Shown here: positions 3,925 through 58,166 of the stretch, piece after piece | How the letters are laid out: each line of letters starts with the position of its first letter | Numbering within the stretch: position 1 is the first letter of the stretch | Assembly (NCBI GenBank): GCA_001871115.1 | Contig: MNUR01000085.1 | Location: 22,060 to 86,059 of the forward strand | Direction: 5' to 3' | From: Elusimicrobia bacterium CG1_02_56_21 | Lineage (GTDB): Bacteria > Elusimicrobiota > Elusimicrobia > Elusimicrobiales > UBA9959 | Length of the DNA: 64,000 nucleotides | Translations under genes and position numbers: made by a program | Notes under the pieces: generated by a model | Told to the model about the DNA's origin: nothing | The model's input: the letters and a program-made list of their open reading frames with translations, nothing else | The model's database searches: none

Positions 3925-3949
3925 TGATTTTAATACCGGGGCTGACCTG

Positions 3950-4062
3950 GGAGCCTGTCCGACATAGGCAATTTCGCCTGCAATTGCCGCTTTTGTCCTG
4001 CGCTTCGGCTCGGCTCCAAAATAGACAATTTCGTCATGAAAGCCTAATGTCGGACAGGCTCC
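3950..4062. repeat. Nested palindromic intergenic repeat, family A, copy 1 (short form)
   Basis: 16-bp perfect terminal inverted repeats GGAGCCTGTCCGACAT / ATGTCGGACAGGCTCC. Inner palindrome GGCAATT...AATTGCC. Second copy at 57925-58089. The right end overlaps the TAG stop of the upstream response regulator gene. Confidence 0.8.
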
Positions 4063-31864: not shown

Positions 31865-32704
31865 TTAGTAGCGCAGGTGCTGGTCGAAAGCGCTGCCGTG
31901 TATTCCGCCGTGGCAGGCGGTGCAGTTCCTGAGCGCGGCGCCGGTAATACGCGCGCCGGCTGCCGCGCCGACAGCGTGCCGGTTGTCAGCCAGGGAATGG
32001 CAGCGCAGGCACAGAGCGGGCTGGGCAACCGTCAGCAGTTTCTTTATGGGAGAGCCGTGGGGATTATGGCAGGTAAGGCAGTCTTCGGTAACCGGCGGAT
32101 GCTCCATGGTATAGGGTCCGCGCACCGCCTGGTGGCACTTGGTGCAGGTCTCTGTCTTGGCAGTCAGGGCCTGTTTTTTATCGGTATGGGGGTCGTGGCA
32201 GTCCACGCAGGAGATTCCGCCTTCCTTTAAGGGATGGTGGGAAAACATATTGAAGCGGGCGGTCACTTCCTTATGGCAGGAAGCGCATAAGGCGGAATTG
32301 GCGTCCTTGTATTTTGCCGTGTCCGCGCCCTTTACGACCTTGGGCGTATGGTTGCTGTGACAGGCGGCGCAATTGAGGCCGGCCTTTTTATGGTCGGAGA
32401 ACGCCCAGTTCATCCGGTTGGCGTCTTTTACATGACAGACCTGGCAGGCGGCCGCGCCGGGCCTTGCGGGTTTTGTTTCCGGGCCGGGGTTGGCTAAATG
32501 TTTTTCAGTGCCGCTGTGGCACTTCGAGCAATCCTGCTTGCCGTGCACGCCCCTGGCGTGGGAAGACGAGGCTGCGTCATGGCAGGCTGAACACGCCGCA
32601 TTGGCTGTCGTGTCGGCGCGGGCCGCTGGCGGGTTCGAGAGTATTCCTACAGCGAAAGCCAGCAGGGCAATGACCCCACAGGCCTTTACGTTAATCCTAT
32701 TCAT
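31865..32704 (-). CDS. Periplasmic decahaem c-type cytochrome, MtrA/DmsE/PioA-like
   Basis: Signal peptide plus ten CxxCH motifs in 279 aa (CSACH, CSKCH, CQVCH, CAACH, CASCH, CVDCH, CTKCH, CLTCH, CLRCH, CTACH). The C-terminal CTACHGGIHGS resembles the MtrA family. Confidence 0.85.
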   Translation of the reverse strand: MNRINVKACGVIALLAFAVGILSNPPAARADTTANAACSACHDAASSSHARGVHGKQDCSKCHSGTEKHLANPGPETKPARPGAAACQVCHVKDANRMNWAFSDHKKAGLNCAACHSNHTPKVVKGADTAKYKDANSALCASCHKEVTARFNMFSHHPLKEGGISCVDCHDPHTDKKQALTAKTETCTKCHQAVRGPYTMEHPPVTEDCLTCHNPHGSPIKKLLTVAQPALCLRCHSLADNRHAVGAAAGARITGAALRNCTACHGGIHGSAFDQHLRY

Positions 32705-32872
32705 TTAGTTCTCCTGTTTTTTAAAGACCAAGGTCTTATTTGTACTGCGCGTATGTGCCGCAAAAGGCAATACAGTACCAATACACTAGCAAACATGCGG
32801 CAACCGCGTATTAATGTAAAGCAATTGCCGCATTGATTTAAGTTAACCGGTTTAAGCGCGGTCAGCCGCTAA

Positions 32873-33139
32873 GGGCTTGTTAAAGAATAACTGACGCATT
32901 TGGCTGAGCTGATTTTGGAGCGAGCCGAAGCGGCGTGAAGCGACACGTACTCCATGTACTTTAGCGGAACGCCGCAAAGGCGCAGCCCAAAAGCGGCTCA
33001 GCCCCCCGGGGGAGGCCCATCTTTGAACCGGCTGCCGCGTTGCTCCTCACTCACAGACCACCGGTATGCTCGTTCATCGCGCCTTGCATCCGGATCAAAT
33101 ATGGGCCTCCAAATGCGTCAGTTATTATTTAACAAGCCC
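32873..33139. repeat. MITE-like nested palindromic element, family C. It shares its core with family A.
   Basis: 31-bp terminal inverted repeats GGGCTTGTTAAAGAATAACTGACGCATTTGG (32873-32903) and 33109-33139, with 1 mismatch. Inner palindromes GCTGAGC...GCTCAGC and GGAGGCCCAT...ATGGGCCTCC. The core TTTTGGAGCGAGCCGAAGCG...GCGCAGCCCAAAAGCGG matches the reverse complement of family A. Confidence 0.8.
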
Positions 33140-33852
33140 TAACGCCGTGAAACCTGCTCCAGCCTGGCTTTGTCTTTCACCGCGACGTTCCGGCCGGCGA
33201 CGGAGATCCAGCCTTTCTTGCGGAATTCGGCCAGCAGGCGGCAAAGAACTTCCGGGGAGGTCCCGAGCATTTTGGCCAGGTCTCCCCTGGTCTCCGGGAA
33301 CTGTACGCTGGCAGAGCCCTTGGCAACGGCCCTCTCCACTATATATTTAGCCAAGCGTCCTCTTACGGTTTTAAAGCCGAAGTCCAGCAGCTGCTCCTCG
33401 GAGCGGCCAAGCTCCGCGGCAAAGCGGGTCAGCAGGGCGCGGCAGACCTGAGGGATCTCCAGGAAATTTTTCTCGAAATAGGCCCCGTCCAGGAAACAGA
33501 TCCGGCAGTCTTCCAGCGCTTCGCCAGTGCCCAGATAGGCTTCACCGGCAAGGAAAGAGCGGTCCCCCAGCAGGGCCGGGGCCTCTATCACACGGGGAAT
33601 GCTGGAATGAAGCCCCGTATCCGTCCTTATTATTTTAACCCGGCCTGTACAGAGGAAATACACGCCGAAAGGGCGATTGCCCTCGTAAAAAATAATATTG
33701 CCTTTGCGGTAATCATTGGTTATCCTCTTTTTGCAGAAGCCCTCCCATACCGCGTCAGGAACTGCGGCGAAGACCGGCATTTTCAGCATCGGGCATTTGC
33801 ACTTTGCCGCTTCAAAGGTTTCACACTTACACTTCGGACTGATAGTTTTCAT
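33139..33852 (-). CDS. Crp/Fnr-family transcriptional regulator with an N-terminal Cys cluster
   Basis: cNMP-binding-type beta-roll (IIFYEGNRPFGVYFLCTGRVKI) and C-terminal HTH (RGDLAKMLGTSPEVLCRLLAEFRKKG). N-terminus has SPKCKCETFEAAKCKCP. Confidence 0.85.
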   Translation of the reverse strand: MKTISPKCKCETFEAAKCKCPMLKMPVFAAVPDAVWEGFCKKRITNDYRKGNIIFYEGNRPFGVYFLCTGRVKIIRTDTGLHSSIPRVIEAPALLGDRSFLAGEAYLGTGEALEDCRICFLDGAYFEKNFLEIPQVCRALLTRFAAELGRSEEQLLDFGFKTVRGRLAKYIVERAVAKGSASVQFPETRGDLAKMLGTSPEVLCRLLAEFRKKGWISVAGRNVAVKDKARLEQVSRR

Positions 33853-33882: not shown

Positions 33883-35058
33883 CTAAACTGCCGGCTTTGC
33901 CGAGATCTCCTCATCAGTAATATAGCAAGCGGGATCGGCTTCCCACATATCGCCGGTAGCGCGAAGCGCGCGCACCCGGAAACCTCCGCCACAAACGTCT
34001 TTCCAGGCACAGGTTCCGCAGCGGCCCTTTAATAGAGGAAGGCGGTTCCTGAGGCCGGCCAGTACGGGGTGTTTCCCCTCCCCCCACACTTTACTGAAGG
34101 GGGTCTGGCGGATATTGGCTATGGTAAGGTCCTGCCAAAACTGGTCCGGGTGTATATTCCCCTTCCAGTCTATATTGGAAAGGGTGACGCCGGAGCCGTT
34201 GGCCCCGCCGCCGTTCCACTGCAGGATCTCGAGAACGGCCGCGGCGCGCTTCGGGTCCTTCTTGAGCAGCTTAAGGTAAAGATAGACCGCGTCGCAGGGA
34301 TTGTCCACGGTGAGGATCTCGGTGGGCTTGGGCTTTTTCGCCAGGATCTCCGCGCGGCGGATGATGGTCTCCATGGCCTTCCGGGATTCGGCGTGGGTGA
34401 GATCGTCGCCGCTGATTTCCCCGCCCCGGCCTGAATAGACCAAATGGTAGAAACAGGCCCTGGGGATCTCCTCGCCTTCTATAAAGTCGAAGATCTTATC
34501 CAGGTTCTCCACATTATGCTTGGTCAGGGTAAAGCGCAGGCCGGTCTTCTGCCCTACCTCTTTAAGGTTGCGCAGGCCTTTGAGCGCGCCCTCGAAAGCC
34601 CCGTCCACGCCGCGGAATTTATCGTTTATCGGGCCGATCCCGTCGAAAGAGATGCCGACATAAGTGATGCCCAGGGACTTGATCTTTTTGGCCATGTCCG
34701 GGGTTATCAGGGTCCCGTTAGTGGAGATAGTAACCCTTATGCCTTTGCCGGTGGCGTAAGAAGCCAGCTCGAAGAAATCCGGGCGGGTAAGCGGCTCGCC
34801 GCCGGAGAAAAGCAGGGCCGAGACGCCCATTTGTCCGACGTCGTCTATCATCACTTTAGCTTCCGCGGTGGTAAGTTCGTCGGTGTCCAGTTCCCCGGTG
34901 GAATTCGCGTAGCAGTGCACGCATTTCAGATTGCAGCGCTTGGTGCTGCTCCAGACCACGATGGGCCTGCGGGCGCCCGCGCCCTCTTTATTGCCGCCGT
35001 AGCGCAATTTCACTGAGGGAGTATCGATGCTGCACCACATTTTTGTTATATCAAGCAT
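33883..35058 (-). CDS. NirJ/AhbC/AhbD-family radical SAM enzyme with a SPASM domain (alternative haem biosynthesis)
   Basis: CNLKCVHCY radical SAM motif. C-terminal CGTCAWKDVCGGGFRVRA. Sits among ahbAB and other haem genes. Confidence 0.75.
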   Translation of the reverse strand: MLDITKMWCSIDTPSVKLRYGGNKEGAGARRPIVVWSSTKRCNLKCVHCYANSTGELDTDELTTAEAKVMIDDVGQMGVSALLFSGGEPLTRPDFFELASYATGKGIRVTISTNGTLITPDMAKKIKSLGITYVGISFDGIGPINDKFRGVDGAFEGALKGLRNLKEVGQKTGLRFTLTKHNVENLDKIFDFIEGEEIPRACFYHLVYSGRGGEISGDDLTHAESRKAMETIIRRAEILAKKPKPTEILTVDNPCDAVYLYLKLLKKDPKRAAAVLEILQWNGGGANGSGVTLSNIDWKGNIHPDQFWQDLTIANIRQTPFSKVWGEGKHPVLAGLRNRLPLLKGRCGTCAWKDVCGGGFRVRALRATGDMWEADPACYITDEEISAKPAV

Positions 35059-35094
35059 ATTTATATTCCTATTTATGTAAAACGCTGTAGTCTT

Positions 35095-36198
35095 TTATTT
35101 TTTAGCTTTTGCCTTGGGTTCATAGAGGCAGTACGGCTCCTGGCCCATGTAGTCGCCGGTGGTCCCGAAAGCCCTGGCCCGGCAGCCGGCGCAGATAACC
35201 CGGTATTCGCAGACCCCGCATTTTCCTTTAAGGGCGTCCGGGTCGGTGATGGTCTTGAAGACCTCGGAGTTCTCCCAGACCTCCCAGAAATTCTGTTTCC
35301 GCAGGTCCCCGGCCGGCACGGGCAGATAACCGCAGGGGAAAACCTCCCCCTTGTGGGAGATGAAGGCGATAGCGCTGCCGGCCAGGCAGCCGCGCATCTG
35401 GGCGGTCCGGCCCGCGAACTCGGGGCTGGAAGCGGCAACTTTCTGGCGGACTATCCTGGTCTGGTGCGGCGCGCAGGTGGCGCGTATCTCCATGCCGCCG
35501 GGCGCGGGATGAGCGTGACCGTGGCCATGGGCCGGGTGCCCGGCGGCGCCCTGCTGCACCATCAGCCAGTTGAGGAATTCCTCGTAGTTCTCGGCGCCGA
35601 GGCGCATCGCGTCTGGCAGCTCGGCGCCGCAGCCCACCGGGACCAGCAGGAAGAAATGCAGGGCGTCCACCCCCAGCTCGCGGGCCAGTTTCACCACCGC
35701 GTCGCGCTCGGCCACGTTCCTGGTGCTGACCGAGCAGTTGATCTGGGTGGAGATGCCGGCGGCCCTGAAAAGCTTGAGGGCGTTCACGGCCTTGTCGAAA
35801 GAGCCTTTCTGGCCGCGGAACTCGTCGTGCGTGGAAGCTATCGCCCCGTCCAGGCTGACGGAGATCCGGTGCGGGCCGTAGGAGGCCAGCATTTTGGTCA
35901 TCGCTTCGTCCACGAGCGCGCCGTTGGTGGCGATGGCGAAGGGGATGCCTTTCTCCTTGGCGAAGGCGAGCAGCTCGGGCAGGTCTTTCCGCATCAGCGG
36001 CTCGCCGCCGGAAAAGACCACCATCGGCGGGCGGCCTTCGCCTTTGAGCGAGAGCAGGATAGCCTTGAATTCGTCTGTGGGGAGTTCATATAGTTCATCG
36101 CCCCTCTCGGGGACATTGGTCCGGCGGCAGTGCACGCACTGCAAGTTGCAGCGGGAAGTGGTTTCCCAGAAAACTAACCTCGGCGGATTTCTTTTCAT
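35095..36198 (-). CDS. NirJ/AhbC/AhbD-family radical SAM enzyme with a SPASM domain and a His-rich insert
   Basis: CNLQCVHCR motif. C-terminal CGVCEYRVICAGCRARA. Insert GHPAHGHGHAHPAPGG. The ATG at 36198 is preceded by AAGGA. The longest ORF starts at 36225. Confidence 0.75.
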   Translation of the reverse strand: MKRNPPRLVFWETTSRCNLQCVHCRRTNVPERGDELYELPTDEFKAILLSLKGEGRPPMVVFSGGEPLMRKDLPELLAFAKEKGIPFAIATNGALVDEAMTKMLASYGPHRISVSLDGAIASTHDEFRGQKGSFDKAVNALKLFRAAGISTQINCSVSTRNVAERDAVVKLARELGVDALHFFLLVPVGCGAELPDAMRLGAENYEEFLNWLMVQQGAAGHPAHGHGHAHPAPGGMEIRATCAPHQTRIVRQKVAASSPEFAGRTAQMRGCLAGSAIAFISHKGEVFPCGYLPVPAGDLRKQNFWEVWENSEVFKTITDPDALKGKCGVCEYRVICAGCRARAFGTTGDYMGQEPYCLYEPKAKAKK

Positions 36199-36231
36199 GG
36201 TGGTGTCCTTCAAGTAGCGTATCAAAGTCTG

Positions 36232-36361
36232 GGGCCGTCAGGTGTTCTGCCCTGCGAACCCTGGAAGAGGAAACCCTTGCGTCGGTTTTCCCCCGCCCGG
36301 GAAAATTAGGGCGGGGCCCCCTTTCCGCAAAGGGTTCACAGGGCAGAACACCTGCCGGCCC
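36232..36361. repeat. Structured palindromic intergenic element, family B, copy 1 (candidate cis-acting RNA)
   Basis: Outer arms 36239-36254 CAGGTGTTCTGCCCTG and 36339-36354 CAGGGCAGAACACCTG (perfect 16 bp, extendable to 36232/36361 with 1 mismatch). Conserved core GAACCCTGGAAGAGGAAACCCTTGCGTCGGTTT...GGCGGGGCCCCC..TTCCGCAAAGGGTTCA is shared with 41143-41251. Confidence 0.75.
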
Positions 36362-37652: not shown

Positions 37653-37683
37653 ATTTTAGCTGCTGCTAATGTGCTGCGCTTCT

Positions 37684-39024
37684 TTATAACTTCAGCGCGT
37701 CTACAAAATCAGCGAGTTCTTTATCGGTTCCGTCGAAAGGGGGCATGGTAGCTGCGGGATTCCTTAAGATGTTCTTCAGCTCTTCTTTGGTGTGCAGCTG
37801 CAGGGGTTTCTCCAGGTTAGGGCCGAAAGTACCGCCTTCGCCGTTATAAGTGTGGCAGACCAGGCAGCCGCGCGCTTCCAGCTCCACTTCCACATCGTGT
37901 TTTGAAGCCGATGGTTTAACCGGCGCGGACTTGGCCGCGGCGGTTTTAACGGGTTCGGGTTTAGGCGCCTGCTTTGCCGGAGTTTTCACTTCTGCGGCAG
38001 CCTTGGTTTCTGCAGCCGCAATCCCGGCTTTTTTAGGCGCGGCTACCAGAGCCCCGGTCATATACATATGCCCGTATATCAAATAAGGCTTCCTGGCCCG
38101 CTCGCGTGTGTAAGCTCCGAATGAAAAAGCTGTGAGCGCGGCCAGGCCGCCGGCGAGCAGAACTTTCCGCTTTGTCTTACGGGAGAGCAGGTAAACGGCG
38201 GAACAGGCAACGGCTATCGTGGCCAGGCTGGCCATGGGCCAGAAGAATTTGGCTACCGGGCCTTTTACTATGCTGTCGAAGACCGCCAGATTTATGTATT
38301 TAAGGGTGAATAAATAAGACAGGCCGCTTAAAGGCTGGAGCAAAATAGCCACGGCGAAGATGGTTCCGCAATAATCCAGCATCCAGGAATAATAGCCGGC
38401 GTCGGCGGCCGGCGCTTTACGCAGTTTAATGAAAGCGTAGATATAGCCGAACATAGCTGAATTTATCAGGCAGGGGAGCAGCACATGGGTGCTGGAGGCG
38501 GCGAAGCTGGGATTAAAGACCGCGTTCATAAGACGGGGATCCTGGAAATAGGTACCCGGGGTCAGCATAAAAGACCAGGCGGCGTTTATGACCAGCGCCG
38601 CGGCTATACCGGAAGCCGCCGCTACCCCGCCTATGAAGATATGCCGGCCTTTATTTGGGTTATCCCAGGTTCCGCCGTAGAGCGCGGTAGAAGCCATCAT
38701 TACCAGGAAGAGAACCGCTTCAAGGAAAAGCGGCCAGAAGAAGATATTGTAAAGTTTTGAAGTGAACTCGGGGAAAAGCCCGATGAGGAGAACCACAAAA
38801 GTAACGCCCAGCACGCCGTTTATCTTCATCATGTCGGAAAGGAAATTTATATAACCTTTCGCGAACCTGTCATGAAAAGCGCTGTTCTTCCTGTAGCCTA
38901 TCCATTCCCCGGTAAAAGCCAGGAAAACACCCCCAACCGCCACGAAAGCGAAAAAAACATGGGTAACAATGACCAGCGCCATTACCAGGGAATTACCGAG
39001 GAAAGGGAAATTTATATGGGGCAT
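37684..39024 (-). CDS. Cytochrome bd subunit I (CydA)-like membrane protein fused to a C-terminal monohaem cytochrome c domain
   Basis: The N-terminus LVMALVIVTHVFFAFVAVGG...FWPLFLEAVLFLVMM resembles CydA helices 1-3. About 9 TM helices, an Ala/Lys/Pro linker, then CLVCH...MPPF. The family call is tentative. Confidence 0.5.
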   Translation of the reverse strand: MPHINFPFLGNSLVMALVIVTHVFFAFVAVGGVFLAFTGEWIGYRKNSAFHDRFAKGYINFLSDMMKINGVLGVTFVVLLIGLFPEFTSKLYNIFFWPLFLEAVLFLVMMASTALYGGTWDNPNKGRHIFIGGVAAASGIAAALVINAAWSFMLTPGTYFQDPRLMNAVFNPSFAASSTHVLLPCLINSAMFGYIYAFIKLRKAPAADAGYYSWMLDYCGTIFAVAILLQPLSGLSYLFTLKYINLAVFDSIVKGPVAKFFWPMASLATIAVACSAVYLLSRKTKRKVLLAGGLAALTAFSFGAYTRERARKPYLIYGHMYMTGALVAAPKKAGIAAAETKAAAEVKTPAKQAPKPEPVKTAAAKSAPVKPSASKHDVEVELEARGCLVCHTYNGEGGTFGPNLEKPLQLHTKEELKNILRNPAATMPPFDGTDKELADFVDALKL

Positions 39025-41092: not shown

Positions 41093-41142
41093 GTGGTCTT
41101 CTCCTTGAAGTCTGGCGGCTGTTAGCCTGCGGGTTCGGGCCT

Positions 41143-41251
41143 CCAGGGAACTTCCCCCGTGAACCCTGGAAGATGGAAACCCTTGCGTCGGTTTCCCCCC
41201 GTCAGGCGGGGCCCCCCCTTCCGCAAAGGGTTCACGGGGGAAGTTCCCTGG
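41143..41251. repeat. Structured palindromic intergenic element, family B, copy 2
   Basis: Perfect 25-bp arms CCAGGGAACTTCCCCCGTGAACCCT (41143-41167) and AGGGTTCACGGGGGAAGTTCCCTGG (41227-41251). Same core as copy 1, different outer arm sequence. Confidence 0.75.
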
Positions 41252-41261
41252 CGGACCTCCA

Positions 41262-57894: not shown

Positions 57895-57924
57895 TTATGG
57901 GTAAATTTGAGGATCAGAGGACTA

Positions 57925-58089
57925 GGAGCCTGTCCTACATAGGCAATTTCGCCTGCAATTGCCGCTTTTGTCCTGCGCCTTCGCGCCGCTCAACTCACAA
58001 CCTCCGTCGAGAGTGCTCGTCTCGCGGCGCTTTGGCTCGGCTCCAAAACAGACAATTTCGTCATGAAAGCCTTATGTCGGACAGGCTCC
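57925..58089. repeat. Nested palindromic intergenic repeat, family A, copy 2 (long form)
   Basis: Same termini as 3950-4062 (GGAGCCTGTCCTACAT / ATGTCGGACAGGCTCC, 1 mismatch) and the same flanking modules, plus an additional central segment of about 52 bp. Confidence 0.8.
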
Positions 58090-58166
58090 TGGAAGGCGAG
58101 AAGACTAGAAAGACGAGGAGCTCCTTACGGACCAATCCGCCAGTCTTCTATTCCTCAAATTCTCTA

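Follow-up and report, generated by a model that had tools for sequence, protein, structure and literature searches.

The 267-bp non-coding element at positions 32873-33139 of the window (the whole stretch of 64,000 nucleotides analysed here) is likely to be a non-autonomous MITE which depends on an ISAzo13-family transposase and carries a conserved core module that it shares with other elements. An ISAzo13-dependent MITE is a known kind of element; the unusual part is the hairpin module, which occurs throughout the phylum under different ends. MITEs are usually classified by their ends, the interior being taken as filler, whereas in these elements the interior is the conserved part.

Element boundaries and the ISAzo13 partner

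The element ends in 31-nt TIRs with one mismatch (Table 1). Its arms, at 32872-32903 and 33109-33140, are 97% complementary, the 32nd complementary base being part of the flanking TAA duplication, and the 31-mer GGGCTTGTTAAAGAATAACTGACGCATTTGG occurs at only two places in the window (with 0 and 1 mismatch), where 0 chance matches are expected. Both results confirm the initial annotation, which had described a 267-bp element bounded by 31-bp TIRs with a single difference. The ORFs within the element are short and overlap the hairpins, and the whole element folds more stably than its shuffles (z = -9.1 as RNA and -12.8 as DNA).

Table 1. Window positions and strands of the element's parts, its two neighbouring genes and the family A elements
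Feature	Positions	Strand	Basis
Family A element A1, internal-deletion derivative, only the core base kept (3988-4023)	3950-4062	-	R1 29.4 bits, 52 model positions missing
Decahaem c-type cytochrome, 168 bp downstream of the element	31865-32704	-	ORF; ten CXXCH motifs; Pfam Paired_CXXCH_1
Left copy of the target-site duplication (TAA)	32870-32872	+	Direct TAA...TAA around GGGC...GCCC
Left TIR, 31 nt	32873-32903	+	25/31 bases equal to the left TIR of the complete L108 ISAzo13 IS
Hairpin 1, outer stem GGCTGAGC/GCTCAGCC around the core (core proper 32911-32995)	32902-33003	+	Inverted repeat; covariance model R1 91.7 bits, E = 3e-24; fold
G+C spacer between the hairpins, within palindrome CCCCCGGGGG	33004-33010		Sequence; kept in B-type copies of other genomes
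Hairpin 2, diverged second core copy (core 33018-33103)	33011-33110	-	Inverted repeat; R1 35.3 bits on the minus strand
Right TIR, 31 nt, one mismatch to the left	33109-33139	-	23 nt identical (27/31) to the right TIR of the L107/L114 ISAzo13 IS
Right copy of the target-site duplication (TAA)	33140-33142	+	Direct repeat of the left TAA
crp/fnr-family regulator, TAG stop formed by the duplicated TA and the terminal G of the element	33139-33852	-	ORF; Pfam cNMP_binding and HTH_Crp_2
Family A element A2, full-length core (57963-58050), different ends (GGAGCCTGTCCGAC...)	57925-58089	-	R1 87.9 bits; independent HMM E = 1e-10

A scan of metagenomes with 22 specified bases of the TIR returned 16 loci (loci are given L numbers below), namely 12 MITE copies at about 9 distinct sites, among them a 93-bp derivative that lacks hairpins and a copy that accounts for a chimeric contig end, and 4 ends of full-length IS. 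The element is therefore not unique to this locus. A complete IS is present in L108, and further IS ends in L107, L110 and L114. The L108 element spans positions 1259-2545 (1287 bp) with TTA on both sides, has the ends GGGCCTGTTAATAAATAACTGGCGCAT and GGGCTCGTTAAACAATAACTGACTCAT, and holds a single ORF of 402 amino acids that matches PF07592, the ISAzo13 DDE domain (1e-141), and NF033519, the ISAzo13 equivalog (4e-177). The right TIR of the window element is the same as the L107/L114 IS ends across the 23 outer bases and agrees with them at 27 of 31 positions overall; the left TIR agrees with the left end of the L108 IS at 25/31 positions. Because its TIRs match the ends of full-length IS of this family, we regard the window element as ISAzo13-dependent. 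ISAzo13 elements are reported to make 3-bp target duplications (PMC10045372), and a duplication of that length, TWA, is found here. In the mechanism that we propose from these likenesses, an ISAzo13-family DDE transposase supplied in trans would move the element. The initial annotation had called it MITE-like, and it is indeed small and non-coding, has TIRs and a direct 3-bp target-site duplication, exists as multiple copies at different sites and shares its ends with an autonomous, transposase-encoding partner.

Unlike the ISAzo13 IS, which are prokaryotic relatives of the eukaryotic Zator elements, the window element has no transposase gene, and its interior is unrelated to the IS. A search for the core in the full-length IS found none, so the MITE interior is neither an IS remnant nor the product of a simple internal deletion, and for the same reason a derivation of the core from fused subterminal sequence of the parent IS was rejected. 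An IS5-family or PIF-like origin, suggested by the TWA duplication, was dropped since the full-length partner is an ISAzo13 element. Neither the window nor 566 kb of Elusimicrobia loci yielded a transposase, and the IS-bearing contigs gave no tie to Elusimicrobiota. A B-type copy of only 93 bp in L113 has no hairpins and still has a TTA duplication; the core is therefore perhaps dispensable for transposition.

Ends of the B type, of which the window holds one copy only, have the form GG(G)CTYG...AATAA..TG...CATTT, and their outer dozen bases vary, left and right together in each copy. About 33 of 44 B-type copies have TTA/TTA or TAA/TAA flanks, and none of the 44 compared has TTA on one side and TAA on the other, which marks these flanks as a direct 3-bp duplication rather than an extension of the palindrome. 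The 24-mer of the empty site was absent from the metagenomes, and all of the species' other assemblies carry A1, A2 and B; neither an empty site nor an insertion polymorphism was thus seen in the metagenomes or in this species' contigs, and recent mobility at this locus is unsupported.

In some copies the two ends belong to different subfamilies: L069 (6896-7117) nevertheless has matching TAA flanks, whereas the copy in L103 and L115 is preceded by TTA and followed by TAA. Such copies may stem from recombination between subfamilies or from a transposase that tolerates unlike ends. A third inverted-repeat family (C), unrelated to the core, is represented in the window at 36232-36361 and 41137-41257 (130 and 121 bp, with 31-nt TIRs at 94%), and a family C-like sequence is nested within a family A copy in L063.

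The hairpin core and its distribution

Two palindromes lie inside the TIRs, with 35-nt arms (74%) at 32902-33003 and 25-nt arms (88%) at 33011-33110. The initial annotation had reported both, correctly, and had called them nested, which they are not: they stand side by side. R1, a covariance model built on 44 cores, identifies the second palindrome as a further, diverged core hairpin that runs in the opposite direction; the sequence of hairpin 2 was itself in the seed of R1, and non-seed B-type elements of other genomes show the same paired arrangement. R1 has 117 matches in the 566 kb of Elusimicrobia loci, and in every two-hairpin element the second palindrome is a weaker core match on the opposite strand, while one-hairpin elements of either type also occur. 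The interior of the window element consists of two diverged and oppositely oriented copies of one hairpin module of ~85 nt and is not derived from the IS.

The core is a hairpin of ~85 nt. In an unfitted MAFFT alignment 88.8% of the cells of the proposed helices are paired, against 31-47% when the partners are slid, and the corresponding values in the model-fitted alignment are 81.6% and 28-37%. Pairs changed on both sides number 12 in the former and 21 of 26 in the latter. To judge from these alignments the stems of the core covary, the changes separating a handful of subfamilies and amounting to few independent events. Hardly any variation is seen at the base of the hairpin and in its internal loops (GAA opposite RAA, GA opposite GA, GAG/GCG opposite UAA). 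On the strand reading TTTTGGAGC, the forward strand, purines make up 84% of the loop columns and 51% of the paired ones, and in each of the four full-length core types tested this strand has the better fold, by 6.5-9 kcal/mol; counts of G-U against A-C (114 vs 97) gave no strand preference. When the window was searched against Rfam at gathering and permissive thresholds a tRNA alone reached the gathering score, and nothing significant was returned for the B, A2 and L018 elements at E up to 10, so that the core corresponds to no structured RNA described there. A weak match to the core model at 37664-37710 on the minus strand (19.7 bits, E = 0.004), at the end of a coding region and without the upper hairpin, is probably due to chance.

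The window contains two elements of a second family, A, which has different ends; the family A 35-mer lies at 3987-4021 on the minus strand, and the longer copy, A2, extends over about 57922-58091. Local alignment of hairpin 1 with the reverse complement of A2 scores 53, whereas 1000 dinucleotide shuffles score 17.6 +/- 2.9 with a maximum of 32 (z = 12.2), and the other orientation gives no signal. An HMM made only from the B-type cores of other genomes recognises A2 with E = 1e-10 and A1 with E = 0.019. The core that the initial annotation had seen in both families thus withstands statistical alignment, and its observation of one core under different terminal repeats extends to at least five end types across Elusimicrobiota. 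The orientation opposite to family A, also pointed out there, is correct as to strand and has no meaning beyond it, because the 267-bp element carries the core both ways. Between A and B the base of the core is about 95% identical, against about 35% in the 40-nt arms, which is near random. Across genomes the cores group by end type, and so there is no sign of recent core swapping.

The ends of family A (GGAGCCTGTCCGACATAAGGC) are flanked by CTA...TAG, which fits either a TA duplication within CTAG or a 4-bp duplication. The latter is favoured by one copy that has TTAG on each flank, and under either reading the target differs from that of B. In a search for an autonomous family A partner only a solo end, in L025, was found, and viral contigs gave no match. 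Core-like hairpins with yet other ends are present in L019, L053 and L081. Copies of family A (window 3947-3949 and 58090-58092; L020, L053, L076, L084) often have CCAG/CTGG in place of CTAG on one flank, that is, a repeated T-to-C or A-to-G change in a CTAGG context, and these flanks may reflect a mutation or repair bias at CTAG.

For a census, one genome per species was scanned for exact matches to the 5' half of the core, which gave 87 loci, about 70 of them real hairpin elements. Nearly all of these are in MAGs named Elusimicrobia or Elusimicrobiota, in at least 17 assemblies with a G+C of about 51 to 69%; matches in other phyla are coincidences in coding sequence and lack the hairpin. The census puts at least about 30 copies in GWA2_69_24 and at least about 17 in WB02no17_58_19, and other Elusimicrobia MAGs hold dozens of B-type copies. 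The gene order of the window is conserved with an Elusimicrobiota MAG at 47-76% amino-acid identity, which suggests an origin of the window in that phylum, and its proteins are identical to those on contigs of the MAGs GCA_002322375.1 and GCA_002793335.1. Scans of viral contigs with core and TIR patterns produced chance matches only, none of them recognised by the model, and plasmid and phage collections yielded no match.

Many copies in GWA2_69_24 (L023, L040, L044, L047, L054 and others) carry, within the 3' arm of the core, a two-hairpin mini-element of 57 bp (CTGCGGCGATAGCGCCGCAGGGACCTGCGGCAGGGAGTAACTCCTTTCCGCAGGCC), and a related 57-bp mini-element is inserted in hairpin 2; these insertions account for copy sizes of 270, 328 and 384 bp. 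In L055 (350-514) the copy is a perfect palindrome, the core's 3' half having given way to an exact reverse complement of its 5' half, as strand switching on an extruded hairpin would produce.

The junction between crp/fnr and the decahaem cytochrome gene

The contact with the crp/fnr stop codon that had been noticed at the outset is real: the element ends with base 33139, which also serves as the G of the TAG stop. Read on the minus strand, CGG CGT TAG is followed at the junction by GGCTTG, and removal of the element with one TAA reconstructs an empty site, CGG CGT TAG CGG, in which the stop is again TAG. We infer that the element entered the TTA of ...CGT-TAG..., a target overlapping the stop codon at the end of crp/fnr, and that it would have left the gene unaltered: the stop would be TAG with or without it because the element begins with a G. 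The contact itself is explained by the TWA target preference. Element A1 likewise provides the G of the TAG stop of a response regulator, and roughly one element in four lies directly against the stop codon of a long ORF, as judged from crude ORF calls. The neighbouring genes, which are few in number and crudely called, are arranged convergently in 16 cases, in tandem in 20 and divergently in 4. In all three elements of the window the forward core runs in the same sense as the adjacent genes, which are on the minus strand. A search of both strands of the element for a G+C hairpin followed by a T-run found no such terminator-like site, and hence no intrinsic terminator.

As had been stated, the element fills most of the region between the two genes (267 of 434 bases, or 61%). 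This filling could mean that it makes or breaks the promoter of the decahaem gene and is chiefly a regulatory insertion, a view further favoured by one promoter-like hexamer pair on the strand of that gene (TTCACG, 16 nt, AATAAT; 33151-33124, minus), which spans the junction from the 3' end of crp/fnr into the right TIR and faces the cytochrome gene. However, the pair is a consensus match only, and a weak one (9/12), of a kind expected 0.4 times by chance in this region; 168 bp of native sequence remain between the element and the cytochrome ATG, and related copies lie in many unrelated contexts. We therefore judge a promoter role highly improbable. The native stretch includes an FNR-like box at 32833-32846 (TTGAT-TTAA-GTTAA, 8/10 against TTGAT-N4-ATCAA), between the element and the decahaem start codon, and the native regulatory region of the cytochrome may be intact downstream of the insertion. 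At this locus the element is probably a tolerated passenger which, by its predicted fold, would add two very stable hairpins to any transcript that reads through from crp to the cytochrome.

On the same strand, upstream of crp/fnr (33883-36225), two radical SAM genes, one of them with SPASM, and an aminotransferase gene adjoin multihaem cytochrome genes.

Possible roles of the core and related elements

The uneven conservation of the core, with its base at about 95% and its arms near random, the compensating changes and the strand-asymmetric loops suggest that the core has a role, and selection would act on a folded single strand of the module. Most likely, the module would serve propagation, either through a host factor or by a fold-back that joins the ends, and we put forward this role in propagation tentatively. 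The core is retained by families that differ in target, which would make any single transposase a less likely client than a host factor or the fold itself. The ~85-nt core could also be an Elusimicrobiota-specific functional folded module, either a structured RNA or a hairpin of single-stranded DNA to which a conserved host factor binds, and several unrelated transposon families would have adopted it separately and would now be spreading it among these genomes; this is possible, though we lean against it. On such a reading the build with two hairpins would give one functional copy whichever strand is read.

Mismatched left and right end types (L069, L103/L115) and nested insertions between families, which are common (L056, L063 and the GWA2_69_24 copies), make recombination between families plausible. 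The core could then be functionless and merely hitch-hike, A and B having come from one ancestral MITE or having exchanged segments, and the youth of MITE copies, which are alike by descent, points the same way. Yet the divergence between A and B is very uneven over base and arms, the upper stems differ yet keep their pairing by changes on both sides, the loops have fixed bases that are rich in purines on one strand, and the clustering of cores by end type leaves no recent swapping to be seen; a functionless core consequently appears rather unlikely to us. Somewhat less probable again is a cis-acting RNA (a 3'-UTR stabiliser, a processing site or a protein-binding hairpin) that MITEs spread and the host keeps, its two hairpins working in either orientation. 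It is consistent with the strand-asymmetric loops and better-folding forward strand, with the position of most elements downstream of genes, and with the common sense of the forward core and the neighbouring genes in the window; but Rfam has no match, G-U is not in excess of A-C, the hairpins lack the following T-run of an intrinsic terminator, and the bias towards 3' ends is explained as well by a stop-codon-like target. Long hairpins and an intergenic position would also fit a REP/REPIN-type element moved by a RAYT (Y1) transposase, and part of hairpin 2 (CCGGATGCAAGGCG) loosely resembles the arms of E. coli REP. Such an identity was rejected and retains hardly any probability, for long TIRs and a direct target duplication are present here and absent from REPINs, and the ends match those of a DDE-type IS, ISAzo13.

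The window element, read as an ISAzo13-dependent MITE with a conserved core, resembles several known systems. Correia/NEMIS of Neisseria, ERIC/IRU and RUP are small, non-coding, intergenic elements with TIRs, a target duplication and a strong fold, and are often co-transcribed with their neighbours. In size, intergenic position, TIRs, target duplication and hairpin fold the window element is like them, but they have one kind of end within a genus, whereas here a single hairpin is combined with no fewer than five kinds of ends throughout a phylum. Pneumococcal BOX elements and BIMEs (alternating REP units) are similarly modular, with a unit in both orientations, as in the one- and two-hairpin versions here; neither is known to have TIRs, a target duplication or a DDE partner, in contrast to the present modules, which travel within true TIR transposons. 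Among eukaryotic MITEs, Tourist elements duplicate TWA (3 bp) and Stowaway elements TA, with the transposase supplied in trans (PMC2213677, PMC4561436). The TWA duplication of Tourist and the trans-supplied transposase are thus points of likeness, while Tourist and Stowaway differ in belonging to the PIF/Harbinger and Tc1/mariner superfamilies, in their eukaryotic hosts and in having no conserved internal hairpin common to both. Our searches of the literature found no description of ISAzo13-derived MITEs and nothing specific on MITEs of Elusimicrobia.

In a poorly studied phylum, represented mainly by MAGs, one hairpin persists with five or more kinds of ends and two or more target signatures. 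Should propagation require the hairpin, a host factor would be exploited by several transposons; if it acts as RNA, it would be an undescribed phylum-wide cis-element. The link to ISAzo13 gives a little-studied IS family a MITE partner. Repeats placed exactly on stop codons matter for the annotation of Elusimicrobia MAGs, and such repeats break assemblies, contigs ending or turning chimeric at them. Among contigs of this species, that of L005 (JGI 3300025805) passes within the right TIR into sequence that flanks another copy, that of L123 breaks at the edge of A2, and that of L121, from a UBA MAG, is rearranged relative to the window near 58.8 kb.
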